A stretch of 20,388 bases of DNA, taken from an archaeon (GTDB lineage Archaea > B1Sed10-29 > JAJRYS01). Below, piece after piece: positions 1 through 18,926 of this stretch (position 1 is its first letter; each line of letters begins with the position of its first letter). The position numbers and the translations under genes were made by a program. The stretch covers positions 1 through 20,388 of the forward strand of contig JAVYMF010000006.1 of the NCBI GenBank assembly GCA_038736665.1, given 5' to 3'. A model generated the notes under the pieces. The model saw only the letters and a list, made by a program, of their open reading frames with translations. It had not been told where the DNA came from and made no database searches.

Positions 1-461
1 GCTACTTTGCATGTTCTCGGCGCGCAGTCAGACAGGGGATCAACGCATGACAGCGCTGCCTGACAGTCCGAGGGGCAGTTGTACGTCGTTTCGCCTATTT
101 CTGGCTCGCAAACGCCGTTGTTGTTGCAGGCAGACGGTATTGCCGCGCAGCCCGGACTGCCTTCGTATATCCCGCTCGAGTTCCCTGCTTTGCAGCAGTT
201 TATCGCTCCTGTGAATATCTCCTTGTTGTTCGCGGGGTCAACGCACTGCGTGTCGCACAATGAACACGGGTTGTTTGGGTTAGCGGCGCGCAATAATCGG
301 CATTGTGTCGCGGCTTCCTGACAAGAAGAATAAAGCACGCTCTGCTTGCCCGTGCCAGCTACTCCTGTCACTATTAATACAGTTACGCCCGCAACGATGA
401 GCACTGCCGCTATGATAATAAGATACTCTAATGAACCTTGGGATTTGATTTTCTTCTTCAT
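1..461 (-). CDS. Cys-rich secreted/surface protein with class III (archaeal pilin-type) signal peptide, paralog B. Its N-terminus is in the window and its C-terminus runs off the left edge (partial).
   Basis: Hand translation of the minus strand from ATG at 461..459 gives MKKKIKSQGSLEYLIIIAAVLIVAGVTVLIVTG..., with no stop down to nt 1. The N-terminus shows the K-x-QGS-LEYL + hydrophobic class III signal peptide motif. Residues about 40-110 are collinear with the next gene (LYSSCQEAAT.CR...NP..PC..CDT.CVD...EIF.GAI.CCK.GNSSGI.EGS.GC). The ORF is missing from the six-frame track only because it has no stop inside the window. Confidence 0.7.
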   Translation of the reverse strand, partial: MKKKIKSQGSLEYLIIIAAVLIVAGVTVLIVTGVAGTGKQSVLYSSCQEAATQCRLLRAANPNNPCSLCDTQCVDPANNKEIFTGAINCCKAGNSSGIYEGSPGCAAIPSACNNNGVCEPEIGETTYNCPSDCQAALSCVDPLSDCAPRTCKV

Positions 462-471
462 ATTAAATCAT

Positions 472-2034
472 TTAATATGGGCAAGTAACGCATGAACCTT
501 TAACGCATGTTAGTGAACCGCATGAAGTCGTTTCTGTCGTCGTGCTTGAAACGCACGAGCCCTCTCCATTGCAGGCGTATGTCGTTACACTCCTGCATTT
601 GCTTGTCGTACCCTTCAAAGCAGCACAGTTGGTATTGCCACAGCAATAATATGAGCTGTATGTCGTGGTGCCGCAGCTGGTTCCTGACACCACATTCGTG
701 TGAGAACAAACATACGACGAGCAGAGGTCGTTTGTGCAGGGGTTCCCGTCGTTACAGTGCGACGCAGTCGTGCATTGTACTACGTTCGGACCTGGGTTAG
801 GACCGGCGATTGTTTCGTTGAACCCGTCACTCATGTTATAATAATAATTGTGTGTGCTTATTGTTGAGAAAACTTTTTGGTAAATATAGTTGCATCCAGC
901 AGCGTAGTCAACGCATGACGGCGATTGCTTAGTCATATCATAAGTGCTTGTGCCGTCAATGATTACTCGGACAAAAGAAGGCGTTTTGTTGTCAGCGTCC
1001 TTGTAATAAACAGAGTAAGTGAACGTCGATCCAGCCGCGCCCGGGTTTGGAGTAACTCCGGCACCGTAGAATGCCGGGGCGTTGTTCGCGAACACTGATT
1101 TTGTTTCTGTGTCTTTCATGCCCTTGTTGTCAGTGACTGTCAGCGTTACGTCCCGGTAGCCTTGCGTCGTGAAGTTCCATTCTGCCAGCACTTTAAAGTC
1201 AATGCCCTCCCCCGAAAAATTCCAAGAGTACGAAACTATGGCGCCGTCTGGGTCGTTTGAGGATGTCGCGTTGAAACTGCACGTAGAACCAGTGCAGTTA
1301 TAAGTGAAAGCCGCATTCGGTGGCACGCCTGTGCAGTAAGGGTCGCCTGCGCAGTCTGCGTCTCCGCAGTCAATACGGCCGTCGCAGTCGTTGTCCTTGC
1401 TGTCATTGCACGTTTTTTCCGTTGCTTCTGTTAAGAGGCAGCAACCCGCTGTGTTGAATGCACAGTTGACGCAAGTAAGCGTTCCTGATGTGAAGCCTTG
1501 AGTGACGCACGTTTCGCCGTTTAGGTTGGTACCATCGCATTCTTCTGCGCCGCTGATGATATTGTCGCCGCATGTTGCCGGGCAGCCGTCGTTCGGAATG
1601 TCACTGCACGGCCCCCATGCTCCGCTGATGCATTCGCGCTTTCCTGGGCAGTTGGTTGAAGTATTGCATGCTAACGTTTGGCCTGGCGAACAAGATATCT
1701 CACCGCAACCCAACGAGCCCTCGAATATCCCAGAAGAGTTTCCGAGTTTGCAGCAGGTTATAGCCCCTTCAAATATCTCCTCGCCTGACGTCATATCAAC
1801 GCATGAAGTATCGCAGAAGTTGCAAGGGTCGTCCGGATTCACAAGGTGTTTCGCACGGCATTTTGTCGCTGCTTCTTGGCATGAAGAATAAAGAGCGGAT
1901 GATTTCCCTCCGCCAGCTGCGCCTGAAACAAAAAAGACAACGACCCCCGCAACTACTAGCACGGCCGCTATGATTATTAAGTATTCCAAAGAGCCTTGAG
2001 CATGCTTGCTCTTATTGCGCTTAGCCCGCTTCAT
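472..2034 (-). CDS. Large (about 520 aa) Cys-rich, N-glycosylation-sequon-rich modular surface protein with a class III signal peptide, paralog A. It contains a DUF4215-like 'CGDN..GEECDG.N' repeat, a MopE-like 'C.D..DNDCDG..DC' metal-binding motif, a PKD domain and a C-terminal Cys-rich region.
   Basis: The real start is ATG at 2034, giving MKRAKRNKSKHAQGSLEYLIIIAAVLVVAG. The track ORF 472..2073 is over-extended. A TATA-like box TATTTAAG sits 26 nt upstream. The PKD signature is SSNDPDGAIVSYSWNFSGEG...GYRDVTLTVTDNKG. The MopE-like motif is CNDSKDNDCDGRIDCGDADCAGDPYC. The DUF4215-like repeat is CGDNIISGAEECDGTNLNGETC. There are more than 10 N-x-S/T sequons, and the protein has no methionine-rich or hydrophobic core apart from the N-terminal helix. 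Confidence 0.8.
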   Translation of the reverse strand: MKRAKRNKSKHAQGSLEYLIIIAAVLVVAGVVVFFVSGAAGGGKSSALYSSCQEAATKCRAKHLVNPDDPCNFCDTSCVDMTSGEEIFEGAITCCKLGNSSGIFEGSLGCGEISCSPGQTLACNTSTNCPGKRECISGAWGPCSDIPNDGCPATCGDNIISGAEECDGTNLNGETCVTQGFTSGTLTCVNCAFNTAGCCLLTEATEKTCNDSKDNDCDGRIDCGDADCAGDPYCTGVPPNAAFTYNCTGSTCSFNATSSNDPDGAIVSYSWNFSGEGIDFKVLAEWNFTTQGYRDVTLTVTDNKGMKDTETKSVFANNAPAFYGAGVTPNPGAAGSTFTYSVYYKDADNKTPSFVRVIIDGTSTYDMTKQSPSCVDYAAGCNYIYQKVFSTISTHNYYYNMSDGFNETIAGPNPGPNVVQCTTASHCNDGNPCTNDLCSSYVCSHTNVVSGTSCGTTTYSSYYCCGNTNCAALKGTTSKCRSVTTYACNGEGSCVSSTTTETTSCGSLTCVKGSCVTCPY

Positions 2035-2055: not shown

Positions 2056-2064
2056 GTATTTAAG
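2056..2064 (-). promoter_or_regulatory. TATA box for pilin-like gene A, implying a leaderless or short-leader transcript.
   Basis: Minus-strand CTTAAATAC is centred about 26 nt upstream of the ATG at 2034. It lies inside the 3' end of the signal peptidase gene. Confidence 0.45.
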
Positions 2065-2066
2065 CA

Positions 2067-2777
2067 TTAACAAGAAAGGGTGAACTCGTAATTCGTGCCC
2101 ATATTAGAATGGCCTTCGCACACGGGAATGACATCGCAGAAGAACAGCTTCACGTGCCCGAGCAGGGGAACGTGCCACAGGATTTTTTTGCCGACAAGCG
2201 AGCGCTGCGTGATAAGCGTTGACAGGCACGAGCCAGGGTTCTCGTCAGCGCACATAATAACGCTACCGTTTATCGAGCCGAACTGGTCCGGAACAGAGTT
2301 CGCGTCGCCTTTCGTCATCAAGTAGTAATTGCCGTTGTACTTGAATAATGCCATGGCACGGTGGATTACCTGCGCCCCTGACGGGCGCGCGTAATACACG
2401 ACCAGGTCGTTGGAAGCGTTAGCCTGGATTGTTTCTCCACCTGCTATTATTCTCTGTACAGTGTTGTTTTCAATGACTGGCTTGATGTCTGAAAAAGAAG
2501 TTATGCTCACGAGAGGCGCGTTAACGCTCGATATGTCAGTACCTTGGATTATGAGAATGTCGCCTATGTTGTAATGACCGCGCTCGGAGCATGACGAAAC
2601 GATGACCATCGGCGAGGACGTTCCAAGAATAGCTGGGAGCACGACGAAGTAAACCACTGCCGCGACGATGAAAGAAATAGCCCATTCGCGCAGCTCGTCT
2701 TTCACGCTGTACTGTTTCTTGGTTTTTTTAGGGAAAAAAGTCCTGAATATCTTGGAGGCTGTTTTTTTAACTTCCAC
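2067..2777 (-). CDS. Signal peptidase I, archaeal/eukaryotic Sec11 (S26B) type, with an N-terminal TM anchor and an unusual C-terminal Cys/His-rich extension.
   Basis: The catalytic region VSSCSERGHYNIGDILII aligns to Sec11 VLSGSMEPAFQRGDILFL with the serine nucleophile conserved. The histidine motif is VIHRA and the TKGDANSVPD motif corresponds to the Sec11 GDNN box. The start is GTG at 2777, immediately after an in-frame stop and preceded by the SD-like GGGGT. The C-terminal 70 aa carry C..C...H..H...C..C.H residues. Confidence 0.75.
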   Translation of the reverse strand: MEVKKTASKIFRTFFPKKTKKQYSVKDELREWAISFIVAAVVYFVVLPAILGTSSPMVIVSSCSERGHYNIGDILIIQGTDISSVNAPLVSITSFSDIKPVIENNTVQRIIAGGETIQANASNDLVVYYARPSGAQVIHRAMALFKYNGNYYLMTKGDANSVPDQFGSINGSVIMCADENPGSCLSTLITQRSLVGKKILWHVPLLGHVKLFFCDVIPVCEGHSNMGTNYEFTLSC

Positions 2778-2874: not shown

Positions 2875-3129
2875 TTATTTAATCAGCGATTTAATGTCTT
2901 TTTTCAAATCGCTCAGGGCATCCTTAAGAGCTTTTCTCGGCTCGCCTTTCTTCGTTCTTATGAAAAACGTCGGATGGCCAACGAGGGGATGTGGCACGTC
3001 ATACTGGGCGATTTCGACGTTCTTGTCTTCCAACAGCTTCGAAACGAGAACGCCAGCGAAAGTATGGTCCTCGCCCTGCAGCTCGAACTCCAGTTCGTTG
3101 TCATCCTCGCGGATTTTTTTGAATTTCAT
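2875..3129 (-). CDS. rpoL: DNA-directed RNA polymerase subunit L (Rpo11).
   Basis: MKFKKIREDDNELEFELQGEDHTFAGVLVSKLLEDKNVEIAQYDVPHPLVGHPTFFIRTKKGEPRKALKDA is a textbook RpoL/Rpb11 pattern (ExGEDHTLxNxL...HPL...P.F.I.T). ATG at 3129 is preceded by GGTGA (SD) 5 nt upstream. The track start at 3138 is a GTG. Confidence 0.85.
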   Translation of the reverse strand: MKFKKIREDDNELEFELQGEDHTFAGVLVSKLLEDKNVEIAQYDVPHPLVGHPTFFIRTKKGEPRKALKDALSDLKKDIKSLIK

Positions 3130-3139
3130 CTTTTTCACC

Positions 3140-3736
3140 TTACATTAATAGTTTTTCGTCAGCGTTGCTAAAATCAGAGCCGTAGCAGTCCGCGAGCTTC
3201 CGCGACTCGATGAAGCCGCATGCTGGGCAACGCAGTTTCACGCCATCTCTCTCAAGCGTGGTCCTGCAACGGGCGCATGACGCCTTGACGACTCCGAGCG
3301 ACTTGCCGTCGGTCGAAAGGGAGACCGTGTGCTTTGAAACGCCTGTGATTCGCGCTTTGATGATATCGCCGACGCGGAACTCTGAGTGCATAGTCTCGAC
3401 GTACGAGTTCTTCACGTCCGAAACGCGGAGAACCGCGGTTATGCCGTTGACCGCGTAGTCCACGCCGTTAACTCTCACAGGCATCAGATCTACCATGGCC
3501 GAGTTTTCGGTCACTTCAGCGACTTTTCCGAGGGTTATTGTTCCGACGCCCTGCAGCTTAGCCACGCGCGTTCTTACGTTCAATCTTGCCAAGTGATTCT
3601 TGGCGTCAAGCACCGGCTCGCCGATGTTCGATGAGAGCACGTCGTCGTCCTTCGCGTACGTGCCGAACCCTGGCAGGTATTCTACACTGTTCCCTAATAG
3701 TTCGCCTGGAACAACCGTTTTCTTACCATCAGACAT
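3140..3736 (-). CDS. csl4: Exosome complex RNA-binding subunit Csl4 (N-terminal domain + S1 domain + C-terminal zinc ribbon).
   Basis: MSDGKKTVVPGELLG... is followed by an S1-like beta-barrel. The C-terminus has C-x2-C...C-x2-C (CARCRTT...CPACG), typical of the Csl4 Zn-ribbon. csl4-rpoL linkage is conserved in archaea. ATG is at 3736 (GTG at 3742 also possible). The stop is 10 nt before the rpoL ATG. Confidence 0.8.
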   Translation of the reverse strand: MSDGKKTVVPGELLGNSVEYLPGFGTYAKDDDVLSSNIGEPVLDAKNHLARLNVRTRVAKLQGVGTITLGKVAEVTENSAMVDLMPVRVNGVDYAVNGITAVLRVSDVKNSYVETMHSEFRVGDIIKARITGVSKHTVSLSTDGKSLGVVKASCARCRTTLERDGVKLRCPACGFIESRKLADCYGSDFSNADEKLLM

Positions 3737-3783
3737 AAACACAACTCATTTAGAACAAGTGCAGTTAATTCTGTCAAACATTG

Positions 3784-3791
3784 TTTATAAA
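3784..3791. promoter_or_regulatory. TATA box in the divergent csl4 / GTPase intergenic region.
   Basis: TTTATAAA is near-palindromic. It lies about 32 nt upstream of the GTPase ATG (3823) and about 45 nt upstream of the csl4 ATG. Confidence 0.5.
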
Positions 3792-3822
3792 CGTTATCAA
3801 ACATAAAAAAACAGAGATAATC

Positions 3823-5022
3823 ATGAAAATAGGCATAGTGGGCAAGCCGTCCTGTGGAAAATCAACTTTTTTTAAGGCCGCGACGCTCGTTGACGTCGCG
3901 ATAGCCGCGTATCCTTTCACGACCATAAGCCCGAACTTCGGCGTGAGCTACGTGCGCGTGAAATGCGTCGAGAGCGAGTTCAACGTGCGCTGCAACCCGC
4001 GGCAGGGCTACTGCGAGAAAGGCGTCCGTTACGTGCCTGTCGAGCTCGTCGACGTCGCCGGCTTAGTCCCTGGAGCCCACGAAGGAAAAGGCCTAGGCAA
4101 CCAGTTTTTGAACGACTTGAACATGGCAGACGTGCTAATTCACGTTGTGGACGCAAGCGGCTCGGCAAACGAGCGCGGTGAAATAGGCGCACCGGGCTCG
4201 TACGACCCAGCGAATGACGTAAGATTCTTGGAAAACGAGCTAGATATGTGGTACTTCAGCGTGCTGAAGAAAGGCTGGGAAAAGTTCGCCAAAAAAGCCG
4301 CGAATATGAAGACAAGCGTTCAAGAGCAATTAGCCCAACAGATGTCCGCTTTCAACGTCAAATCTTTTATGGTTGAGGAAGCGATGAAAATACTCGCGTT
4401 ACCTGAAAATCCAGCGCATTGGACAGATGAACAGCTGAAAGAGCTCGCGATTAACTTGCGCCGCGTCACGAAACCTATACTCATCGCGTGCAACAAAATT
4501 GACCTGCCGAAAGCCGGAGAGAACTACGAGCGCCTGAAAAAAGAATTCCCTGAGTATTATTTCACGCCCTGCTCGGCGGCGTCAGAATTAGCGCTGCGCG
4601 AAGCCGCGAAACGAGGCGTGATTAAATACAACTCAGGGGACAGCGACTTTGAAATAATAAACAAAAACGCAATGACTCCTGAGCAGTCTAAAGGACTGGA
4701 ATTCATCCGCGAGAGCATACTGAAAAAGTACGGGTCCACAGGCGTTCAAGCAACGCTGGACGCGGCGGTTTTCGACTTCTTGAAGTACATCGCCGTGTTC
4801 CCCGGCGGCGTGAACAAGCTCGCGGACAGCCAGGGAAGGGTCTTGCCTGACGTGTTCCTGATGCCGCCTGGCACGACAGCGTATGATTTCGCCGCAAGGA
4901 TTCACACTGATTTCGCGAAGAACTTCCTGTACGCCGTAGATGTGCGCTCCAAGATGAAAATAAAGCGAGAGCACGCCCTGAAAAACCGAGACGTGATTGA
5001 AATAATTTCAGCGGCCAAGTGA
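3823..5022 (+). CDS. Obg-family GTPase/ATPase of the YchF/OLA1 type, with a C-terminal TGS domain.
   Basis: The P-loop is [17 protein letters not shown] and the G3 motif is DVAGLV. The C-terminal [17 protein letters not shown] matches the YchF TGS region (E. coli KIHTDFEKGFIRA). ATG at 3823 has a TATA box (TTTATAAA, 3784..3791) about 32 nt upstream. Confidence 0.8.
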
Positions 5023-5364
5023 CTGCTGGATGTCGCTGACGTCAACGCCGTCGGCATCAGCGTCGCTTATATACTCTTTTTCTGATAGCATGTCGCGCTC
5101 GTCATCGGACGCCGTTTCGTATGACGAACTTTCACTGTTCTGCGGTGGTTGAGTCGTTTCCGAGCTTTTGTTTTTTATGAGGCTGAGGGCGTAAAAGTAG
5201 TTCTTGACAAGCGATTCGATGCTTTTGTCTCGCGAGTCGCGCGCGTGTATTTCGACGAGGCGCAGCGCGATTTCCTCATCTGAAAGCTGGCTGGCCGCGC
5301 CAGGCGATGCCTGGGAGCTGCTCGCGCTTTCGTAATTGACCGGCGTTTCAAGTATATCAAACAT
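5008..5364 (-). CDS. Small acidic Ser/Asp/Glu-rich hypothetical protein.
   Basis: The ORF is 118 aa and has TTATTATATA (TATA) 28 nt upstream of its ATG at 5364, on the minus strand. It is convergent with, and overlaps by 15 nt, the 3' end of the GTPase gene. I recognise no family. Confidence 0.4.
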   Translation of the reverse strand: MFDILETPVNYESASSSQASPGAASQLSDEEIALRLVEIHARDSRDKSIESLVKNYFYALSLIKNKSSETTQPPQNSESSSYETASDDERDMLSEKEYISDADADGVDVSDIQQSLGR

Positions 5365-5386
5365 GAGTAATGAAAACGCGGAATCA

Positions 5387-5399
5387 GTATATAATAATT
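5387..5399 (-). promoter_or_regulatory. TATA box for the acidic small protein gene.
   Basis: Minus-strand TTATTATATA is centred about 28 nt upstream of the ATG at 5364. Confidence 0.4.
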
Positions 5400-5406
5400 A
5401 GTACAG

Positions 5407-6186
5407 CTAGTACAGCCCGAACTCTTCAAGCAGCGCTAGTTCCTGCAGGGAGACTTTCTCGCCTTTCTTGAAACGCTCGAAGACCTCTTTGGCTTTTTCC
5501 TCCAGCTTTTTCCTCTGCTCGTCTTTGATTTCCTTCTTTTCTTTCTCGATGGCTGCTTTTTCTTCCGTCCTTTTCCTGCGAGTCGTCTCGATGGCTTCGC
5601 CCAGCTTCGCGCGGACTTCAGCGATTTTCTCGTTTTTTTCCTTGAGCTTTTTCTCCAGCTTGTCTTTTTCCTCGAACAATCTAACTAGTTCTTGGTGGTG
5701 CTTTTCGCTTTCAGCTGCGTTCAACAGCACGGTTTCGTGCGACGCCGAAGCATCGTCCCTCAGCTTGCGCAGCTCCTTGAGCATTTTGTAGTGCTCTTTT
5801 TTGACGTCCCGGAATCCTTTTGACTGCTCTAACTGGCGCTCGAGCTCGTCTAACCTTTTTACTATCTTTTTTTCAGCCGCAGGAGAGAACACGTCCGTCT
5901 GGTAGCGCCAGTTCAGCTCCTCGTATTCCTTGCTTATCTGCGAGTACGAGCCTAGCCCTTCAGACATTTTCTCAAGCTCTTTGTCAAGGCGCTTCAGCTT
6001 CGAGCGGACGTCCGCGACCTGGTCGAGTATCCTCTCTCTTTTTTCCTTGGCTTCTTTGACTTTCGCGTTGTTAGCGTCCCGAGCTTTTTTCTCGGTTTTG
6101 TACTTCTCGTAGTTTTCGTTAAGCGCTGAAATAAGCGCTTTTTTTTCTTCAACGAGCTTGTCCAGTTCCCTCCTAAGGTCTTCCAT
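5407..6186 (-). CDS. Soluble K/E/R-rich coiled-coil protein (family not recognised with certainty).
   Basis: The ORF is 259 aa, almost entirely heptad-like charged sequence, and ends ...LQELALLEEFGLY. Its ATG lies 6 nt after the stop of the upstream gene, so the two look like an operon. The strong, non-random charge periodicity argues for real coding sequence. Confidence 0.6.
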   Translation of the reverse strand: MEDLRRELDKLVEEKKALISALNENYEKYKTEKKARDANNAKVKEAKEKRERILDQVADVRSKLKRLDKELEKMSEGLGSYSQISKEYEELNWRYQTDVFSPAAEKKIVKRLDELERQLEQSKGFRDVKKEHYKMLKELRKLRDDASASHETVLLNAAESEKHHQELVRLFEEKDKLEKKLKEKNEKIAEVRAKLGEAIETTRRKRTEEKAAIEKEKKEIKDEQRKKLEEKAKEVFERFKKGEKVSLQELALLEEFGLY

Positions 6187-6192
6187 TAAGAA

Positions 6193-6924
6193 TCACACGA
6201 CGTCCTTTTCCTTCACGAGCTCTTGAATGGAGCCCTCTTCTTCTTTCCTCTTGCGGTCGAGGAACTCCAGGCCTATTTTTTCGAGCTGCTTCTGGCCTGC
6301 CATGTAAATGCGCAACCCTGTGTTAAGCGACGCGAAAGACACGACTGCGAGCACGGCACACGCGAGCACGTAAATGAAAAAATAAATATCCATCGGGTAC
6401 CTGTTAACTATCGAGTCCACTATGTAAGCCCCGAAGTAAACCACCGCAAGCGCTGAGAACAGCCCAACTATCATCAGGCCTAACGACATCATTTTTTGCG
6501 TGGCCCCGCTTATCCTCAGCAGGTCTATTTTGTCCTGCATCTTGCGCAGTTCCGTTTCTTCTTTGAGCTTCAGGCTGACGAGCTCGCTTTTCAGCAAGTC
6601 CAGCTCGCGCTTTTCCTCGGCGACGCGCTTGTCTGTGTAGTCCTTCTGCTCCATGAGCTTAAGGTCCTGCTGGAGCGCGAACTCTTTCTTGATTTCCTCT
6701 AATTTTTCTTCCGCCTTTTCGCGGATTTTCTTGTCTACTATCGAGTCAAGCTTTTCAGCCAGCGACTGCTCGAATTCTGTCTTGGCTTTCTTGAGAACGC
6801 CCTTTGCTGCCGATTCGCTCAAACCGCTCTGTTGGAGAGTTATGAGTATGTTCTGCTCTGACACGTTCTGGGCGAGCATTTCGATTACGATGTCGGTAAG
6901 TTTGCGCACGTCAACAGAAGCCAT
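6193..6924 (-). CDS. Membrane protein with an N-terminal helical domain, a long coiled coil, two C-terminal TM helices and a short charged tail.
   Basis: The ORF is 243 aa, running MASVDVRKLTDIVIEMLAQ... through a coiled coil to ...MMSLGLMIVGLFSALAVVYFGAYIV...IYFFIYVLACAVLAVVSFASL. It has an ATG start and is co-directional and adjacent with the coiled-coil gene downstream. Confidence 0.6.
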   Translation of the reverse strand: MASVDVRKLTDIVIEMLAQNVSEQNILITLQQSGLSESAAKGVLKKAKTEFEQSLAEKLDSIVDKKIREKAEEKLEEIKKEFALQQDLKLMEQKDYTDKRVAEEKRELDLLKSELVSLKLKEETELRKMQDKIDLLRISGATQKMMSLGLMIVGLFSALAVVYFGAYIVDSIVNRYPMDIYFFIYVLACAVLAVVSFASLNTGLRIYMAGQKQLEKIGLEFLDRKRKEEEGSIQELVKEKDVV

Positions 6925-6960
6925 TAAGCAATCCCACTCGCGAACCGTATTTAATAGTAA

Positions 6961-7914
6961 ATGATGGCAATGGTTATTTATATATTCACAGGGCGCGTCG
7001 GTATTAGCATGATTGAGTCGCTCATCAACCCAGAGCGCGTTGAGAAAAAGCCTTGGGAAGCGTTCATCGCGGGATTTCTTTTCACGATAGCCGCGTGCGT
7101 CCTAACGATGCAGATGAGTGTTACGGGCAGCGGCACGGGCTTTCTCGTGGTTTCCTTCATAACGATAGCTGCCGCGCCTTTCATGGTGCGCTTGTTCGAC
7201 ATCGAGGAAAGCAAAAGAGCCGAGAAAAAAAGCCTACTAGGCAGGCACGAGGAAATCATTCAAGTGTTTGCTTTCTTTTTCGTTGCCGTCATATTCGCTT
7301 CATCGCTGTTCTTCGTGCTGACGGGAGACGACGCGAGCTCGCTCATGTTCGGTGACCAAACGCTTGACTTGTGCTCGAAAGGCCTCATAAAAGACCCCTT
7401 GTGCGCCAAGGCATGCGAAACAGGCGCGCTGAGCGGACCCGTGTGCAGTGAGATGCAGATGACGGGGAACGCCATCGCGTTCAACCCTGACTTCATGACG
7501 ATACTGATGAACAACCTCACAGTTCTGGCGCTTGCGGTAATATTCTCGCTCATACTCGGCGCCGGGGCTGTGTACTTGATAGCGTGGAACGCAACGGTAA
7601 TAGGTGTGCTTATCGCGAAAGTAGCTGAAACGCCGTCAATCCTGGGTTACGCCGACCTCGGAAGCCCATTAATGAATTATATCATCGCTCTCCCGATGAC
7701 GTTGCTGAGGATTCTGCCGCATGGCATTTTCGAGTTCGGAGGATACTTCTTCGGCGCGGTGGCTGGGGGAATACTTTCCTTCTCCCTGATGAGAATGCGC
7801 TGGTGCGACGTCACGAGAATGACGCTGCGCAGGTCGTTCAAGGATGCCGTGATTTACCTGGCAATAAGCGTCGCGCTCATCTTCATCGGCGCCGTAATAG
7901 AAGTAGGCATCTAA
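6961..7914 (+). CDS. Polytopic membrane protein of the SpoIIM/DUF95-like family, with an inserted four-cysteine extracytoplasmic loop.
   Basis: LPHGIFEFGGYFFGA near the C-terminal third resembles the PHGIFE(L/I)P signature of stage II sporulation protein M-like proteins. There are multiple TM helices. The loop is LDLCSKGLIKDPLCAKACETGALSGPVCSEM. The start is ambiguous between ATG at 6961, 6970 or 7009, and a TATA-like TATTTAATAG lies at 6939..6950. Confidence 0.5.
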   Translation: MMAMVIYIFTGRVGISMIESLINPERVEKKPWEAFIAGFLFTIAACVLTMQMSVTGSGTGFLVVSFITIAAAPFMVRLFDIEESKRAEKKSLLGRHEEIIQVFAFFFVAVIFASSLFFVLTGDDASSLMFGDQTLDLCSKGLIKDPLCAKACETGALSGPVCSEMQMTGNAIAFNPDFMTILMNNLTVLALAVIFSLILGAGAVYLIAWNATVIGVLIAKVAETPSILGYADLGSPLMNYIIALPMTLLRILPHGIFEFGGYFFGAVAGGILSFSLMRMRWCDVTRMTLRRSFKDAVIYLAISVALIFIGAVIEVGI

Positions 7915-7985
7915 GCAAAAAACGCGAAGTTTAATGTTGTCGTCTTGTAATAAGACGCTGGAGAAGACGATATTTACTTTTTTTT
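7915..7985. terminator. Convergent-gene terminator zone with a short hairpin plus oligo-T tracts on both strands.
   Basis: Hairpin CGTCTT-gtaat-AAGACG spans 7941..7957. T9 on the plus strand (7977..7985) would serve the SpoIIM-like gene, and T6 on the minus strand (A6 at 7919..7924) would serve the SPFH gene. Confidence 0.3.
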
Positions 7986-9011
7986 CTTGCCGAGTTTCGC
8001 GCTTAGCGCTGCTTTGATTAGGGCTTTTTCGTCTTCGGTCAGTTCGAGCTTTTCTATGCCATATTCTTCTTTTAGCTCGTCTATTATGCTTTTTTTCTTC
8101 TCGCCTGCAGCTGCTTTTTCCTTGTATTTTTCAGCGATTTCCTGCTGGGCTTTAGCGTAGTCTGTGCCGAATTTTTCCGAAACGCTTGCTGCGAGGCGCG
8201 AGAGCTCCATTGGGAAGATTATTTTGGACGACTTGCCTTCTGCGATTTTCTGAAGCGACTGCAGGTACATGTACTGCAGGGTCGGCTGCGAGAATTTGCT
8301 TGCGGCTTCTTGGACGGCGTCCAGCTTTATTTTCATGCCTTCTGCTGTTTCTTTCGCTGCGAGCTTTTTCTGTTGGGCTTCTTTGAGGGCGTGCATTGCT
8401 TTCTGCAGACCTTCGGGGAGGGTTACGGACTGTATTTCGACGTTTTCTATTTCAACGCCCCAATCCTCGGTGACTTTTTTGGTGCTTTCCTTGAGCATGG
8501 CGTTTATTTTCGAGATGCTGGATATGACGTCTGAAGCTTCCATTTGACCTACTACTGAGCGCAGCGCCGCTTGAACGTCCAGAACAGCGGATTTTTGGTA
8601 GTTTTCGACGTTCAGAACAGCTTTTTTGGGGTCCTGGACTTTCAGGAAAAGAATGGCATCTATCTTCAGCTTTACGTTATCTTTGGTCACCACTTCTTGC
8701 GCGGGAATGTCGACTGACTTGGTCCTGAGGTCGACGAGGACGTGGGATTCTATGAACGGTATTAAGAAAGTCCACCCGGGCCCTGCTACGCGCTCGAACT
8801 TGCCACGGTGAAAAATCACGGCTCTCTCGTATTCGTTGAGCCTTACGAAATAATTAGGTGCGCTGATGTAAACGAGCGCAAGGATTGCTATTATGAAAAC
8901 TATCGTCGCGAAAGAGTACCAGAGGTTGAATACTGTGAGCAACGCCGCTCCGAACACCAGCGCGAAGACGAGGGTGATGAACAGCGCTGACTGCTTCTGC
9001 TCTTCTTTCAT
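7974..9011 (-). CDS. SPFH/band-7 (stomatin/prohibitin-like) membrane protein with an N-terminal TM hairpin and a long K/E/A-rich C-terminal tail.
   Basis: The core is ...RAVIFHRGKFERVAGPGWTFLIPFIESHVLVDLRTKSVDIPAQEVVTKDNVKLKIDAILFLKVQDP...VENYQKSA..., followed by coiled-coil-like sequence. The probable start is ATG at 9011 (MKEEQKQ...), with TATA (TTTTATAC) about 25 nt upstream. The track ORF extends to 9044. Confidence 0.8.
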   Translation of the reverse strand: MKEEQKQSALFITLVFALVFGAALLTVFNLWYSFATIVFIIAILALVYISAPNYFVRLNEYERAVIFHRGKFERVAGPGWTFLIPFIESHVLVDLRTKSVDIPAQEVVTKDNVKLKIDAILFLKVQDPKKAVLNVENYQKSAVLDVQAALRSVVGQMEASDVISSISKINAMLKESTKKVTEDWGVEIENVEIQSVTLPEGLQKAMHALKEAQQKKLAAKETAEGMKIKLDAVQEAASKFSQPTLQYMYLQSLQKIAEGKSSKIIFPMELSRLAASVSEKFGTDYAKAQQEIAEKYKEKAAAGEKKKSIIDELKEEYGIEKLELTEDEKALIKAALSAKLGKKKK

Positions 9012-9032
9012 GCGTCTTTTAAGGCTCGGAAG

Positions 9033-9060
9033 GTATAAAAACATAACATATATTTAATAT
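9033..9060. promoter_or_regulatory. Bidirectional promoter region with two TATA boxes (SPFH gene leftward, DUF373-like gene rightward).
   Basis: GGTATAAAAAC (9033..9042) is about 25 nt upstream of the minus-strand ATG at 9011. TATTTAATAT (9051..9060) is about 28 nt upstream of the plus-strand ATG at 9083. Confidence 0.5.
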
Positions 9061-9082
9061 CCGAGAGGCGGGTGCGAACGCG

Positions 9083-10297
9083 ATGTCAAAAGTCCTAGTG
9101 CTTTGCGTGGACCGCGATGACGATGTCGGAAAAAAGACCCGGTTCAAAGGCCCGATTGTCGGCGAGAAGAACAACATCGAAGTAGCCACGGCTCTTATCG
9201 CAGCTGATCCTGGGGAAAGCGATGGCAACACGATGTTCGAGGCCGTGCGCGTTTTCCGCGAGCTTAAGAAGGACGCGGTGGATGTCGTGACGCTGACGGG
9301 TCATCCTTCGCGCGGGTACGCTGCTGACAAGACTCTGGCGGCGCAGCTGGACAGTGTTCTGAAGAAATACGGCAAGATCGACGGGGTTTATCTGGTTACT
9401 GATGGGGCTGACGACGACGAGATAATCCCTATAATTCACTCGCGAGCGAAAGTCATCTCCAAGAAAACGCTGATAATAAAGCAGGCGAAAGAGCTGGAAA
9501 AATCGTATTACGTGATAAAGCAGCTGCTGCAGGAGCCGGCTTTCGCCAGGATAGTGTTCGGTTTGCCGGGCGTAATACTTTTGACTCTTTCTTTTTTCCA
9601 AGAGCTCGGCCTGAAGATAATCATTTTCCTCATCGGAACTTACTTGATGCTGAAAGGATTCGGCGTTGAGGAACCAGTGATAAACTCGTTCCGCTCTTTC
9701 CGGGAAACGACGAGCATTGAGCGCGCGTCTTTCCCCTTGTACATCGGCGCGTTCCTAATGGGCATATTTTCTGTCTGGGCTGGCTTCGAAAAACTCTCGA
9801 CTGCCCAGGCCTCGTTCCTGATGCAGGCCACGTCATTCATTTCTGGGTTCGCGACGCTGTTCATCATAGCTGTGGCGCTGTTTTTGTTCGGCAGAATCGG
9901 AGACATGGCTTACCAGAAAGAGACTTACAAGATAAAGCGCTACTTGATGAGCCTCGTCTCGATAATAGCGATTTGGACCGTGCTCTTGAAAGCGGTTGAC
10001 TTCATATTCGGGAAGATATTTCTAGACGAACTGATATTGTGGGTGCTGCTGGCGTTCTTCGCTTCCATCGTGGGCTTGAACGTTGTGAAGCGCCTGTTCA
10101 TAGACAGGTTCGTGGTAAAGCACTTGAGGAAAGACATGGACGCTTACGACGAAAACGGCGACAGGCTAGGCAAAATCACTGAAGTGAACCGCAATAAGCG
10201 CTTCATCACCGTTGAAAAAAAGGATGAGAAGACAAAAATTTCCTTCAACAAGATAGCGCTTGTAACGAGCGAGTACGCGTCAATAAGAACGCGCTAG
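9083..10297 (+). CDS. Archaeal integral membrane protein with an N-terminal cytoplasmic domain, possibly DUF373/COG2237-type (from memory, unverified).
   Basis: The N-terminus [19 protein letters not shown]...[10 protein letters not shown]...[13 protein letters not shown] forms a soluble domain of about 150 aa and is followed by 6 or more TM helices. The ATG is preceded by GAGGCGGGTG (SD-like) and two TATA boxes at 9033..9060. Confidence 0.55.
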
Positions 10298-12186
10298 GCG
10301 ATCGTTTTTCGTACTTCTGCAATCAGCTGTTTCTTCGCTGCGCACTCTTTCAGCGCGATTTTCAGGACGTCGACCAAATCGCTGGCAGTCACTATCCTGA
10401 TTTTTTTAGCTTTCTTCGCGTCAAGCACGACGTCGTCCTTGTTTCCGTGCGGTATAATGACTGTTTTCGCGCCTGCCTCGATGGCAGCTTCTATTTTCGC
10501 TGAAACGCCGCCCACGGGCAGCACTTCACCTTTGACGCTTATGGAACCGGTCATAGCGACGCTCTGGTCGACTGGAACGTTTTCCAGCGCGGATATCACG
10601 GCTGTAGCGACGCTTATTGAAGCTGAGTCGCCTTCAACGCCCTCGTACGTCTGCAAGAATTGAATGTGCACGTCGTAATTCTTTATGTCCTTGCCTTTGT
10701 ATTTTTTAACTATCGCGAAAACGTTCTGCACGGCCTCCTGCGCGATTTCGCCGAGTTTTCCCGTGGCTATTGTCTTGCCGACATTAACGCTCTGCGCGGG
10801 CGCGACGCTCGCCTCAATAGGTAAGAGTATTCCGCCGAAGCCCACGTTCCCGCCGAGCACGGCGAGGCCGTTCACTTTACCGACAGCCAATCCGCGCGTT
10901 CGGAACACTTCATACTCTTTCTTCACGTCAATCGTCTTGTCGGCTATCTGCTGCTCGAGAGTGCGCGCCAGCGTCTTAGCCGCCAGGACATGCTCTCTTG
11001 TGACGATGCGCGCGTTCTTGGTACGCGCGATGTCGCCCGCCGCTCGGACTAGCCCGCCGAGGTCGCGCAGCTTCAGCGTCAGCCTGTTCTTTCTTCCAGC
11101 GCGCCTGCGGGCTTCGAAAATTACTTCTTCGACGGCTTCAGCGTCGAAATGAGGTATTTTCCCGTCTTTCTTCACTTCTTGCGCGACGAACATGACTATT
11201 TTCTCGCGGTTTGCTTTGGTGTCAGGCATGTCCTCGTTCAAGTAAATCTCGTACCCGTAGCCGCGGATGCGCGACCGCAATGCAGGGTGCATTTTCTGCA
11301 GATCAGACATGTTTCCCGAAGCTATGAGCAAGAAGTCGCACGGCACAGCGTCAGTGCGCACCATCGCGCCTGACGACATCTCGCTCTGGCCAGTGATAGG
11401 GTATTTTTTTTCCTGCATTGCCGTAAGAAGCTCTTGCTGCGCTTTCGGAGACAATGTCGCGACCTCGTCGATGAACAGCACGCCGCGGTTTGCTTTGTGA
11501 ATCATGCCTGGCTCGACGCGCAGGTGAGGGGGCGTCCCGAGGCCGCCGCTCTGGTACGGGTCGTGGCGCACGTCGCCCAGCAGCGCCCCTGCCCGCGCGC
11601 CTGTGGCGTCCACGAAAGGCGCTGAGTTCTTGCCGAAGTTGTCGATGAGCAGCTTAGGCGCGTTTTCCTTTTCCCTGCCAGGCATTCTCAGTCCTTTCAT
11701 TCCTGAAGCGAAAGCGCTCGCGAAGACAAGGATGGCCATGAAAAGGCCGCCGACGATGATGAAAGCAGCGAGTATTATGTCCGTGAAAAGGCGGAAATAC
11801 ATTGAAACTGCTATTGAAAGCATAAACAGCAGCCCTATTAAGAGCACGGGGCCGAAGCCTGGTGTCATTTCTTCCATTGACTGCTGGACGCTTTTCATTT
11901 TCGAGTCAGCGACCATCTTGCGGCCGGAACCTGCGGGAACTACGACGACTTTCGGGTTGTTCTCGTCGCTCGGGTTCGGGTAAATCAAAACATCTTCAAG
12001 CCGCTCCACGGGAAGCATTTCGGCCATGGCCTGCGCGAGCATACTTTTTCCCGTGCCAGGCTCGCCGATGAGAAGGACGTTCCTCTTCTGAGCGGCGGCT
12101 TTCTTGATTAGCTCAACGGCCTTTTCTTGTCCTATCACTTGGCCTACAAGCTTTTCAGACACCTGTATTTCAGAAGTCGATTTCAT
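10294..12186 (-). CDS. lon: Archaeal membrane-bound ATP-dependent Lon protease (LonB).
   Basis: Walker A is [16 protein letters not shown] two-helix TM insertion follows Walker A, as in LonB, and Walker B is VLFIDEV. The C-terminal protease domain has the catalytic Ser in [17 protein letters not shown] and Lys in [10 protein letters not shown]. The ORF is 630 aa with an ATG start. Confidence 0.92.
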
Positions 12187-12224: not shown

Positions 12225-13487
12225 TTAAACTATTTTCCCACGGTATACCCAGGACGGGCCGTAGTAATTCTCGTGGCTCTGGAAATCGTCGGCCAAGCGC
12301 AAGCTTTTCAGAACGTCAAAAAAGTTGCCTGTAATCGAACACTTCGACACAGGCTTAGTTAATTCGCCGTTATTCAGGAACGCGGCGTTCGAAATTTCCA
12401 TGGAAAAGTCCCCAGTGAGCTCGTTCGCGTTATGCACTCCGATGACGTCGTAAACAAAAACGCCTTCCAAATCGCGGAACGGAATATACTCCCTCGCCTT
12501 GGCTTCTATGTTCGAAAAGCCAGGGTGCGGCAATGAAGAGAAAGCGCGTATTGCGTTGCCTGACGGCTTTTTTTTCGCCAAGGCCGCGGCTTTCAAGTCA
12601 TAAAAGTAATTCCTTAAAACGCCGTTCTCTATTATGGGCTTGCGTTCTGCGGGCACGCCCTCGTCGTCGCACGCAAAAGACATTATACCGCCTGCTCGCA
12701 GGGGGTTGTCATACAAGGAAAAAGAATCGCTGGCCACTTTCTTGCCTAATTTCCCTGAGAAATAAGACTGCTTTCTGAAAGCTTCCTCGCCGTTCACTGC
12801 TACTTCTAAAATTTCCAAAATCAGGCTTAGCGCGACAGAAGGGTGAAGCACTATGTCGTACTCGCCCGACACCCGTCTGCCTCCTTGGAATTTTTCGGCG
12901 TACTCGCCGGCCTTCTGCGAAACCTCTTGGAGGCAGAAGTGTTCTCGCGCGCTGAAAGAAAAAGAGGAAACGCATTCCTTGAACTGCGCGGATGACGTCG
13001 CGCTCAACTGATTTTCTCTGCACTCGAAGTCAACGCCGTTTGAGTTGATGATGCGCGAGCGCTCTTCGGAGTAGGACACAAAGTTCTGGTTCGAGTGAGA
13101 GCGGCCTTTGATTTCAGTCATGCCGATGACTTCGTCGGCGATTTCTTCTTTCTTGGACGCCAACTTTTTTGAGTAAAGGCCTTTCACGTGCTGATAGCCT
13201 GAGCTTTCCGGAAAATTAAACTTAACCCCTGAAAACTTCGCAGAGCTCAGCGCGCTCTTTAACGCAGCGCCGAACATTTTCTCGTCTGTAAAGTAAGAGA
13301 ATCCCACGCCTCCTTTTTTTAAGACGCGGATAGCATAGCCTGACGTCGAAGACGAGTCGAAGCTTTCAACGCGGTCCAAAACAGTCTTGAACAGGAGGCT
13401 GTTTGAAGATGAAAAAAATAGCTCGGCTTCATCGCAATGCTTCTCGGCTTCTCTCAAAAAATAAGTTAAGTCAGGCAACGCGCACAC
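12225..13487 (-). CDS. PmbA/TldE-family (peptidase U62, non-catalytic partner of TldD) protein.
   Basis: Global TldD/PmbA-family similarity: ...[16 protein letters not shown]...GGGR..GEYDIVL... pattern, with no HExxxH. The start is a non-ATG codon. The track start at 13487 is GTG sitting inside AAGAGGTG. TTG at 13478, with that GGTG as SD 6 nt upstream, is equally likely. The gene overlaps the tldD 3' end. Confidence 0.8.
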
Positions 13488-14820
13488 CTCTTATTCTCAT
13501 ATGCGGCGCCGAGCCGCTTACAGGGACTCCTTGCCCTCCCTTGCCGCAAGTGCCTGGGTCGTTGAACGCCATGTCTTTGCCGACGGCGTCTACTTTTTTC
13601 AGAGTAGTGAGAATATCGCCGATAATCACGATGTCGCGGACGCGCTCCTTTAACTCTCCGTTTTCAATAATATAACCGCCTTCTGACGCGAACTGATACG
13701 TTCCCGCGGACGTCATAACCTGCCCTCCTTTCACGCCTTCCACGTACAAACCGCGGCGCACGTCAATGATGTCATCGAAAGAAAAATCGCCTGTTTCGAC
13801 TACTGTGTTGCTCATCCTCACTAAAGGAAAGCGCGATACTCCTTGCGAGCGAGCATTTCCGGTGGAGTGCGTTTTCATTTTTCCAGCTGTCTCGCGAGAG
13901 TGCAAATAAGAGCATAAAACTCCTTTGTCGATGATTCGCGTAGGGCGCGCCTTCACGCCCTCGTCATCATAATAGTAAGAGCCGGCGAACCTTTCGAGCG
14001 TCGGGTCGTCAATTATGCTCACGTGCTGCGAGCCGATGCGTTCGCCTATTCTGCCGCGCAAGATGGACTCGCCCATCAGGACGTAATCCGCTTCGCACGC
14101 GTGGCCGACGGCCTCGTGCGCCAGCGTGCCGCTCATTTTAGGGCCGAGCACTACGTCGTAAACCCCCGGCTTGACTCGCTTCGCCCGAAGGAGGGAAACG
14201 CAGCGCTTTGCAACGTCTTCTGTTTTTTCCATCGCGTCGTCAGCCAGCTCTAACCCGTAAAGCCCGGAAAATCCTTCGGAGGATTTAATCACAAGGCCGT
14301 TTTTTCCGGCGAAGACTGAGTGGAATATTCCGCTCGAGTCGGACTCGAAATCCACGCGTGAGCCTTCCGAGGAAGCGTAAAAATGCCTGAAATGCGCGTC
14401 TCTGTAAGTCGTGTCGAATCCGACGACGCTTTTCATTTTCAGGAGTCTGTTCAGTTCCAGGGTTTTCTTGACTTTCTCGTCAAGAGAAAAGTCGCTGACT
14501 GGCTTCTTGGATTTGAGTTTAATGCTGTCGACGCTTGTTTTCTCTTGGCTCATTGTAGTCTTCAGGCTTTTTTTCCCTGCTGCCCTGCATAAACGCATCG
14601 CAACGCTTAAAGTTTCTTTTAATTTTTTCTCATCATTAGTTGACGCGAAACCAAAAGCTCCTTTTTTAAGAACGCGCACTGAAAAAGCCGAGCGCGAGCT
14701 GTTTACTGCGCTGTCTGGCTTTCCGCTGCGCACGGAAACGAACGCTGAGTCAACTGAAACTCCTCGTATTTCTACGAGGTCGGCGTCGGCATCTAGAAAA
14801 CGCTCGATTGCATCTATCAT
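13471..14820 (-). CDS. tldD: TldD metalloprotease (peptidase U62, catalytic subunit).
   Basis: The HExxxH zinc motif is in AHEAVGHACEADYVL. A TldD-type N-terminal region (MIDAIERFLD...YVEIRG) and the GGxxxS...G C-terminal patterns are present. ATG at 14820 overlaps the upstream gene's stop (ATGA) and has the SD-like AAGGAAG 7 nt upstream. Confidence 0.88.
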   Translation of the reverse strand: MIDAIERFLDADADLVEIRGVSVDSAFVSVRSGKPDSAVNSSRSAFSVRVLKKGAFGFASTNDEKKLKETLSVAMRLCRAAGKKSLKTTMSQEKTSVDSIKLKSKKPVSDFSLDEKVKKTLELNRLLKMKSVVGFDTTYRDAHFRHFYASSEGSRVDFESDSSGIFHSVFAGKNGLVIKSSEGFSGLYGLELADDAMEKTEDVAKRCVSLLRAKRVKPGVYDVVLGPKMSGTLAHEAVGHACEADYVLMGESILRGRIGERIGSQHVSIIDDPTLERFAGSYYYDDEGVKARPTRIIDKGVLCSYLHSRETAGKMKTHSTGNARSQGVSRFPLVRMSNTVVETGDFSFDDIIDVRRGLYVEGVKGGQVMTSAGTYQFASEGGYIIENGELKERVRDIVIIGDILTTLKKVDAVGKDMAFNDPGTCGKGGQGVPVSGSAPHMRIRGVRVA

Positions 14821-18152: not shown

Positions 18153-18926
18153 ATGCCAATTTCAAGGGCTTTTGCTCTTTTCATAATGCTGTTGGCGACG
18201 CCGCTTGCAGTCGTGACGCTCGAGCATGACGTGATACTTAAGGTGAATTCTGACAACAGCGCTTCAGTTACAGAACGCTATTTGCTGGGCCTGAACGAGA
18301 ATGAAACTGCGTTATTCAACAAAATTTCGGAAAGCAACGTCAACAGCATAACAGAATGGCAGAAGCTTCTTCCCGGGATGAACGCTTACGTGCTCGGCGA
18401 AACGCCTTCATTCCAGATAAGCACGTCCACAGCCAGCGGGGGACAGTTTGGAAACGAAGTGAAAATAGAGTATTCGATAGTAAATTTTTCTTCGAAAGTA
18501 GAGACAAGCGGCAGGTATGAAGTGTACAGGATAAACGGGACACAGTTCAGGTTCTACGACGCGAACACAGGCATATTCAGTATCGGCTCAGCTGACCTGA
18601 CGATAATACTGCCTGACGAAGTCACAAGCGCCAACATCCTTGAAACAACCCCTAAGCCGTGGATATCAAGCGGCAACTCCTTGCGGTGGATAAGCGGCAC
18701 AAGCACCAATTCTTTCACCGTCGTTTACAGAAAGGAAATCAAGATAAGCGAAAGCTTTGACTTCAACAGGCTAATCGAAACGTACTTCGTCAAAAACCCG
18801 TTTTACGGAGGGCTCATAGTGGCGGTGGTCATCGTGAGCATAGCGTACAGGAAGCAAATCATTTCACTCATAAGCGAGTCGTTTTCCTCGGAAGAAGAAA
18901 TACAACCGCCGAAACGCGAGTCATAA
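18153..18926 (+). CDS. Secreted, C-terminally membrane-anchored protein with a Sec-type signal peptide and several N-glycosylation sequons (unknown family).
   Basis: The N-terminus MPISRAFALFIMLLATPLAVVTL is a signal peptide. A beta-rich ectodomain of about 200 aa carries the N-x-S/T sites NETA, NFSS, NGTQ and NSIT. The C-terminal TM segment is GGLIVAVVIVSIAY, followed by a charged tail. A strong SD (AAGGAG, 18136..18141) lies 11 nt upstream of the ATG. Confidence 0.6.
   Translation: MPISRAFALFIMLLATPLAVVTLEHDVILKVNSDNSASVTERYLLGLNENETALFNKISESNVNSITEWQKLLPGMNAYVLGETPSFQISTSTASGGQFGNEVKIEYSIVNFSSKVETSGRYEVYRINGTQFRFYDANTGIFSIGSADLTIILPDEVTSANILETTPKPWISSGNSLRWISGTSTNSFTVVYRKEIKISESFDFNRLIETYFVKNPFYGGLIVAVVIVSIAYRKQIISLISESFSSEEEIQPPKRES

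Follow-up and report, generated by a model that had tools for sequence, protein, structure and literature searches.

Two adjacent archaeal genes encoding candidate modular pilins with a PF04021-type pilin module and adhesion-type C-terminal domains

The stretch of archaeal DNA analysed here, contig JAVYMF010000006.1 over 20,388 bp and referred to as the window, opens with two adjacent minus-strand genes, A and B, which are probably modular pilins of the Epd/Flp-like kind (PF04021, 'system 1') that display adhesion domains in a DPANN archaeon. Gene A (472..2034; start ATG at 2034, stop codon at 472-474) is a complete open reading frame (ORF) of 520 amino acids (aa), and gene B (1..461) encodes the N-terminal 153 aa of a paralog of A, the remainder being cut off by the contig end; this layout agreed with that given in a sequence-only reading of the same DNA. 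In both products, QGSLEYLIIIAAVL comes after a short basic N-terminal leader. Taking a modular pilin to be a protein in which a complete N-terminal pilin module is joined to domains foreign to pili, we found this composition in A, the module of which is followed by, among other segments, a PKD domain and an Ig-like sandwich. The remark in the sequence-only reading that A is far larger than a structural pilin was correct, and the added domains are of adhesion type. In the NCBI records, A is named 'PKD domain-containing protein' (identical record, P0001) and B is 'hypothetical protein QXO69_01035, partial' (P0121).

The leader of A, MKRAKRNKSKHA (aa 1-12; 1999..2034, minus strand), has a predicted prepilin-peptidase cut between Ala12 and Gln13 and precedes a pilin module (aa 13-110; 1705..1998, minus strand) made up of a hydrophobic alpha-1 helix and a small head with 8 Cys. 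Translation of B gave the leader MKKKIKS (441-461, minus strand), the corresponding module (aa 8-105; 147-440, minus strand) and the beginning only of a Cys-rich extension (3-146, minus strand). The predicted cut sites, ...KHA/QGSLEY in A and ...IKS/QGSLEY in B, share Gln+1, Glu+5, Tyr+6 and the hydrophobic stretch behind them, and the family described below has the cut-site consensus [KR][AG]/QG[SA]LEY in ~90% of its members. PF04021 (Class_IIIsignal; DUF361/UPF0333), for which the cutoff is 23.7 bits, matched residues 12-35 of A with 28.1 bits and still gave 24.7 on the isolated mature segment of A; the fragment of B reached 23.6 bits, 0.1 below the cutoff. Gln+1 together with Glu+5 are hallmarks of the EppA-processed DUF361 pilins of Methanococcus maripaludis, and Tyr+6 is a trait of Flp pilins that is missing from the M. 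maripaludis pilins (PMC3875500).

A was modelled with AlphaFold2 (AF2) in two pieces. For residues 1-115, modelled with a 102-sequence alignment, the mean predicted local distance difference test score (pLDDT) was 82; in the model, a single helix (residues 16-65) leads into a small head, which is built of short helices and loops and carries the conserved Cys. With about 50 residues and a hydrophobic first half, the modelled helix has the properties of alpha-1, and its predicted length matches that of type IV pilin alpha-1. The module of A lacked the alpha-beta roll, in which an antiparallel beta-sheet of the head packs against alpha-1. The class III signal peptide and the pilin-type helix recognised in the sequence-only reading were both borne out by the PF04021 match and the AF2 model. 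Comparison of the module profile with the sequences of the PDB yielded weak matches (E 0.1-1.6), 7 of the 8 listed being pilins from solved filaments. The closest relative of the A module was P0125, a stand-alone pilin of 112 aa, with 75% identity, the best value for a long member being 65%; a further stand-alone pilin, P0135, comes from the same metagenome-assembled genome (MAG) as A and B.

From Gln+1 onwards, A and B could be aligned over 98 residues without a gap, with 69% amino-acid identity and 8/8 Cys in register, as expected from the collinear N-termini and conserved Cys spacing noticed earlier; past the module, the two sequences diverge completely. The module DNA was 65% identical, lower than the roughly three-quarters estimated in the sequence-only reading, with 73-77% at codon positions 1 and 2 and 46% (near-saturated) at position 3. 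By sequence comparison, the pair is an old duplication under purifying selection. The spacer between the two genes was 10 nt, not 12 nt as first counted, and with so short a spacer co-transcription of A and B is plausible. A TATA-like TTAAATA (2057-2063, minus strand), recognised from the letters, lies 29 to 23 nt 5' of the ATG of A; its position is not inside the upstream signal peptidase gene, where the TATA box had been placed, but within the 32-nt spacer past the stop codon of that gene (2067-2069). An alternative start of A, TTG at 2073, was rejected; it would overlap the gene before it and lengthen the protein by a non-basic stretch absent from all family members.

The remainder of A is composed of several Cys-rich and beta-rich segments, all encoded on the minus strand. 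A Cys-rich linker with 6 Cys and no match in the family search (aa 111-154; 1573..1704) leads to a single DUF4215-like, Myxococcus-type Cys-rich repeat (aa 155-198; 1441..1572). The excised segment scored below the Pfam cutoff for DUF4215 (PF13948; 16.9 bits, E = 0.008, cutoff 27), and the best local BLASTP identity with P0003, P0015 and P0018, Myxococcota-type proteins consisting of tandem copies of a DUF4215-like repeat, was 55-71% over 8-9% of A; the earlier assignment to a DUF4215-type repeat held for this local similarity and failed at the Pfam cutoff. Next is an acidic double-disulfide motif, CNDSKDNDCDGRIDCGDADC (aa 203-234; 1333..1428), which was matched by NCBIfam NF033662 (acidic double-disulfide repeat) with E = 1.8e-6 and 27.6 bits, below the cutoff of 41. 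It had been taken for a MopE-like metal-binding motif, an assignment that was not upheld, no Pfam match to the MopE motif PF11617 being found in A at E <= 10. The PKD domain (aa 246-312; 1099..1299), rightly predicted from the letters, was above cutoff for both PKD_4 (PF18911; E = 4.6e-11, 43 bits, cutoff 27) and PKD (PF00801; 28.2 bits, cutoff 23.5).

Behind the PKD domain, profile, AF2 and Foldseek analyses identified an Ig-like beta-sandwich (aa 315-420; 775..1092) that belongs to no Pfam family. Its profile matched the Paenibacillus xanthanase PspXan9 among PDB sequences (6FHJ residues 816-916, E = 4.3e-21), the AF2 model of residues 315-420 was a 7-strand sandwich with pLDDT 70-85, and Foldseek returned 6FHN/6FHJ on top (E = 3.5e-6), followed by generic Ig-like/E-set domains from sulfite oxidases and chitinases and, as a separate group, by CBM56. 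The xanthan-binding construct CBM84 starts at 'DGRVYT' and extends to the C-terminus of PspXan9 (PMC10049358). Since this start falls inside the 6FHJ stretch matched by A, the sandwich may be the counterpart of the module preceding CBM84 instead of CBM84 itself. It was also noticed that the same domain occurs in P0242 (two copies), P0315 (one) and P0058 (one). Judged from these sequences, the sandwich seems to represent a domain family without a name that glycoside hydrolases and these pilin fusions have in common. The protein ends with a Cys-rich module with 16 Cys (aa 421-520; 475..774), which was matched by Dicty_CTDC below threshold (20.1 bits, cutoff 27) and is weakly similar to P0058.

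Cys, Thr, Ser and Asn are abundant in A. It has 46 Cys (8.8% of residues), in place of the more than 60 first counted, and 11 N-x-S/T sequons, 10 of which remain after removal of the leader. The statement that A has more than 10 sequons was accurate; the density was not above that expected from composition, as composition-preserving shuffles of A contained 7.9 +/- 2.4 sequons and 23% of them reached 10. Sequon enrichment was therefore ruled out, and the number is attributed to the Asn/Ser/Thr-rich composition. A word-indexed search with residues 313-520 scored nothing, and searches for homologues of A found none of full length, the matches being domain-wise (PKD, Cys-rich repeats and N-terminal module).

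A search for homologues, recommended in the sequence-only reading for DPANN and other archaeal genomes, showed that the N-terminal module defines a family with members in Micrarchaeota, Iainarchaeum and unclassified archaeal MAGs. Among 1.84 billion cluster representatives, the module profile found 324 proteins at E <= 0.001, 239 of them at E <= 1e-10; in the best 150 of the 324 matches, the module almost always started no more than ~30 residues from the N-terminus, spanning ~1-102. Of 132 representatives inspected (127 new and 5 from earlier searches), 113 were longer than 200 aa and 60 longer than 400 aa. From a larger database, a separate word-indexed search mainly retrieved stand-alone proteins of 90-125 aa, several of them from Micrarchaeota, with names including 'class III signal peptide-containing protein' and 'UPF0333'. 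In P0020, P0058, P0073 and P0098 (393-526 aa), the similarity to A is confined to the first ~105 residues, and other domains follow. Pfam scans of 105 long members identified PKD in 22; InlB B-repeat, FG-GAP, ConA-like lectin (Laminin_G_3) and Big_7 in 8 each; CARDB in 7; the MopE motif (PF11617) in 5; LVIVD in 4; and DUF4215 and fn3 (Fibronectin type III) in 2 each, along with several beta-propeller families. By these domain assignments, the cargo is typical for adhesins and surface proteins. Going by these searches, A and B are one instance of a sizeable family, mostly unnamed in databases, and not a singular oddity; we found no paper on this Cys-knotted pilin family or on its systematic fusion with adhesion domains in Micrarchaeota/Iainarchaeota.

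In a scan of one genome per species, the family was present in 18 loci, 15 from Micrarchaeota/Iainarchaeum MAGs, 2 labelled 'archaeon' and 1 labelled 'Bacteroidetes'. The last of these (L009; PWHJ01000086.1, 3649 bases) is binned as 'Bacteroidetes bacterium' and encodes a typical family member; the contig is probably mis-binned. Because syntenic and homologous loci are found in Micrarchaeota/Iainarchaeum MAGs, the organism probably groups with host-dependent DPANN archaea as a relative of Micrarchaeota, in line with the host-attached or episymbiotic setting suggested before.

The sequence-only reading had also proposed a search for a pilus ATPase, a platform protein and a prepilin peptidase; all three were found in relatives, and none in the window. 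At loci L007 (Micrarchaeota), L014 ('archaeon') and L017 (Iainarchaeum), short family members are located inside a pilus gene cluster in the order ATPase, two platform-sized genes, pilins, prepilin peptidase and more small class III proteins. Pfam matches at L007 were T2SSE (1.6e-52), T2SSF twice, and Peptidase_A24 with Arc_PepC; at L014 and L017, Pfam scanning covered the peptidase (Peptidase_A24 + Arc_PepC), and the ATPases were identified from their Walker A motif, GGTGSGKTT. In GCA_038870695.1, a pilus operon (L020) and a region syntenic to the window (L019) lie ~37 kb apart on one 138-kb contig. The order at L020 is T2SSE, T2SSF, T2SSF, family pilin P0164, Peptidase_A24, eight small ORFs and a KaiC-like ATPase. 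Clusters of 'system 1' type IV filaments with two platform genes are reported from methanogens and DPANN (bioRxiv 10.64898/2026.04.22.720090), and in gene content the two platform genes plus a dedicated peptidase of the relatives are the 'system 1' (Epd-like) layout. In the stretch 11101-15901 of L020, the eight ORFs encode 52-148 aa without Pfam matches and are followed by the KaiC-like ATPase (PF06745) and three unannotated ORFs; the eight products may be minor pilins or assembly factors.

In the mechanism proposed here, the pre-protein would enter the membrane via its hydrophobic N-terminal segment, and a prepilin peptidase of the A24 family would cut the basic leader off just ahead of Gln+1. 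The alpha-1 helix of ~50 residues and the small four-disulfide head would together make a complete pilin module, nearly that of the stand-alone pilins of ~100 aa, which an ATPase/platform machinery, presumably encoded in this genome as well, could take into a pilus or its tip. The C-terminal chain of A would thereby be shown outside the cell as the binding part, its likely targets being a surface or the envelope or a glycan of a host cell, and diverged tandem copies with different tails could provide several binding specificities on one carrier.

Several observations weigh against A and B being modular pilins. His at -2 in A and Ser at -1 in B are minority states (Ser at -1 was seen in 9/113 long representatives, 7 with KS and 2 with RS), and the efficiency of cleavage is uncertain. 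A tail of 400 residues fits poorly into a filament shaft, and incorporation may be restricted to the tip or of low abundance. Residues 421-520 of A had an AF2 pLDDT <50 and were not modelled, and no ligand can be named for the tail. In addition, neither Pfam scans nor inspection of the translations detected a pilus-assembly or prepilin peptidase gene in the 20-kb window, where the recognised genes are of housekeeping type and several others have no Pfam match. Overall, the observation made in the sequence-only reading was largely real, with several errors in numbers and assignments, and its interpretation was reasonable and in part supported.

The main rival is an arrangement similar to the bindosome or to a pseudopilus anchor, in which the proteins, once processed, remain close to the membrane, in short assemblies or singly on their helix anchor, and bind substrates or host molecules with no extended pilus. 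Class III signal peptides are also used by archaeal surface proteins that are not pilins, bulky tails are poorly suited to a filament shaft, and the long family members sit away from the assembly operons. However, archaeal major pilin genes are often stand-alone too (PMC4858521), so the distance from an operon carries little weight. Moreover, the long proteins retain the whole pilin head, leader and helix, the head of A being as close to a stand-alone pilin as described above, and no substrate-binding-protein family was detected in A by Pfam or among the 25 most frequent of the 63 Pfam families matched in the 105 long members. We consider this arrangement rather unlikely.

Less likely still, an improbable account on the evidence at hand, is that A and B are structural proteins of the envelope or associated with the S-layer, either anchored by an uncleaved helix or set free by the type I signal peptidase encoded next to A, and without a link to type IV filaments. 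A is situated directly downstream of the gene for this enzyme (2067..2777, minus strand; Sec11/SipW type with a Cys/His-rich C-terminal extension), its richness in Cys, Thr, Ser and Asn resembles that of many envelope proteins, and the atypical residues at -2 of A and -1 of B could impair cleavage by a prepilin peptidase. The invariant Q-G-x-L-E-Y, however, marks substrates of prepilin peptidases and not Sec signal peptides, and the S-layer protein of a cultured Micrarchaeon differs in architecture (bioRxiv 10.1101/2021.04.28.441871). The gene order in relatives bears on the same point. L019 has the order of window positions 2875-12186, with LonB, DUF373, Band_7, SpoIIM, ..., Csl4, RpoL and signal peptidase (L019 1-6644), and also contains class III genes for 330, 106 and 207 aa; L002 (Micrarchaeota, 9726-11887) keeps the Csl4, RpoL and signal peptidase part, and a family member of 626 aa adjoins it. 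Class III genes are thus located within a few kb of this block in 3/3 loci (window, L019 and L002), and at L002 and L019 the block is separate from them or otherwise arranged relative to them. A functional link of A to the upstream enzyme was rejected; the enzyme belongs to the conserved Csl4-RpoL-signal peptidase block, and because this block is conserved in L019 and L002 the adjacency represents an inherited neighbourhood, not an operon-level link.

The assignment of this neighbour is based on TIGR02228 (44.6 bits, below the cutoff of 51.85) and on alignment to human SEC11A, which placed Ser64, His139, Asp158 and Asp164 at the catalytic positions; no Pfam match was found for 2067..2777 at E <= 0.1. 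Its orthologues at L002 and L019 are 50% and 47% identical, respectively, the L019 gene encoding 215 aa without Pfam matches. The serine motif, SSCSE, is unusual, the sequence around the catalytic Ser being usually SGSMEP. The Cys/His-rich C-terminal extension of ~70 aa (PLLGHVKLFFCD...CEGHSN.GTNYE..LSC) is conserved in both orthologues.

That A and B are an artefact, either a collapsed repeat or one gene broken in two by a frameshift, as might be supposed from two adjacent, similar sequences of which one is truncated by the contig end, has a negligible chance of being true, because a start codon, a leader and the full module are present in each of the two copies, their DNA is just 65% identical with near-saturated third codon positions, and tandem pairs of long members recur in other MAGs (557 and 200 aa at L001, 477 and 314 aa at L004, 330 and 106 aa at L019); the two-gene interpretation made from the letters was right.

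CPR (candidate phyla radiation) bacteria are the bacterial counterpart of the DPANN archaea, and modular pilins are abundant in these ultrasmall bacteria; like the proteins seen here, bacterial modular pilins vary greatly in their architecture. In bacteria, adhesion modules grafted onto a pilin module are an established arrangement, as in Streptococcus sanguinis PilB with a vWA module and PilC with a lectin module, and a survey confined to bacteria counted >1,200 modular pilins in 264 architectures, many of them in CPR (PMC8179133). The bacterial carrier is IPR012902, whereas the carrier in A and B, known from sequences and models, is an archaeal PF04021 module with Gln+1, Glu+5 and Tyr+6 and a disulfide-knotted head without a beta-sheet. 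The Epd pili of M. maripaludis, or 'system 1', are alike in having PF04021/DUF361 leaders with Gln+1 and Glu+5 (PMC3875500) and some pilin-like proteins that far exceed the major pilin in size, and the operons of the relatives share with them a dedicated A24 peptidase and a platform split into two T2SSF genes. The M. maripaludis pilins, in contrast, lack Tyr+6 and the conserved 8-Cys head, and fusion on a large, systematic scale with PKD, lectin or propeller domains is not described there. Bacterial Flp/Tad pilins resemble A and B in their short leader, in the 'Flp motif' Glu+5-Tyr+6 and in the small head behind a long helix; they differ in being ~50-80 aa long without extra domains, and the machinery found here is archaeal, with a peptidase C-terminal domain of the Arc_PepC type. 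Bindosome proteins also carry a large functional ectodomain behind an archaeal class III signal peptide, whereas the proteins studied here have no substrate-binding-protein fold and possess a full pilin head as in stand-alone pilins.

To our knowledge, host recognition and attachment of DPANN archaea are largely unknown. Their pilins are often 'not annotated' (e.g. PMC9563170), and reports on archaeal pilus loci mention large class III proteins (PMC4858521; bioRxiv 10.64898/2026.04.22.720090). The results offer a searchable pilin family, defined by [KR][AG]/QG[SA]LEY and the conserved Cys pattern, which is tied to complete type IV filament operons in relatives and many members of which bear what look like swappable binding domains. 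If displayed on a pilus, these proteins would be prime candidates for determinants of host specificity, and if A and B are indeed modular pilins, the 'modular pilin' principle would reach into the archaea, parallel to the modular pilins of CPR. As a wider and tentative proposal, it is possible that the Micrarchaeota/Iainarchaeota lineages possess an undescribed, lineage-restricted pilin carrier, with an Epd/Flp-like helix and a four-disulfide head of no known fold, onto which dozens of adhesion, lectin and propeller domains are grafted, several per genome and often in tandem; the pilus would then be a programmable organelle for host recognition, in which genes of the A/B type set the host cell or surface.

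The remaining genes of the window were annotated to a large part by Pfam, which identified Csl4, RpoL and an Obg-like GTPase; SpoIIM-like, DUF373, M29 peptidase, RNase Z, PAP2-like and PIN-domain proteins are encoded as well. A gene of the PmbA/TldD family is located at 12225-13487, and the ORF at 13471-14820 is a probable second gene of this type, as judged from its translation and from synteny with L019. The LonB-like protease and the Band_7-like protein were assigned on the basis of translation and L019 synteny only. A tRNA scan and an Rfam search at the gathering threshold over 1-20388 were both empty. Three consecutive minus-strand genes at 5008-6924, each without a Pfam match, encode an acidic product of 118 aa, a Lys/Glu-rich, coiled-coil-like product of 259 aa and a product of 243 aa, the last being charged and Lys/Glu-rich in its N-terminal half, with membrane segments at the C-terminus. 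At 18153-18926 on the plus strand, a protein of 257 aa without a Pfam match has a hydrophobic signal or anchor at its N-terminus and a transmembrane segment at its C-terminus; this protein may be a further surface protein of the organism.

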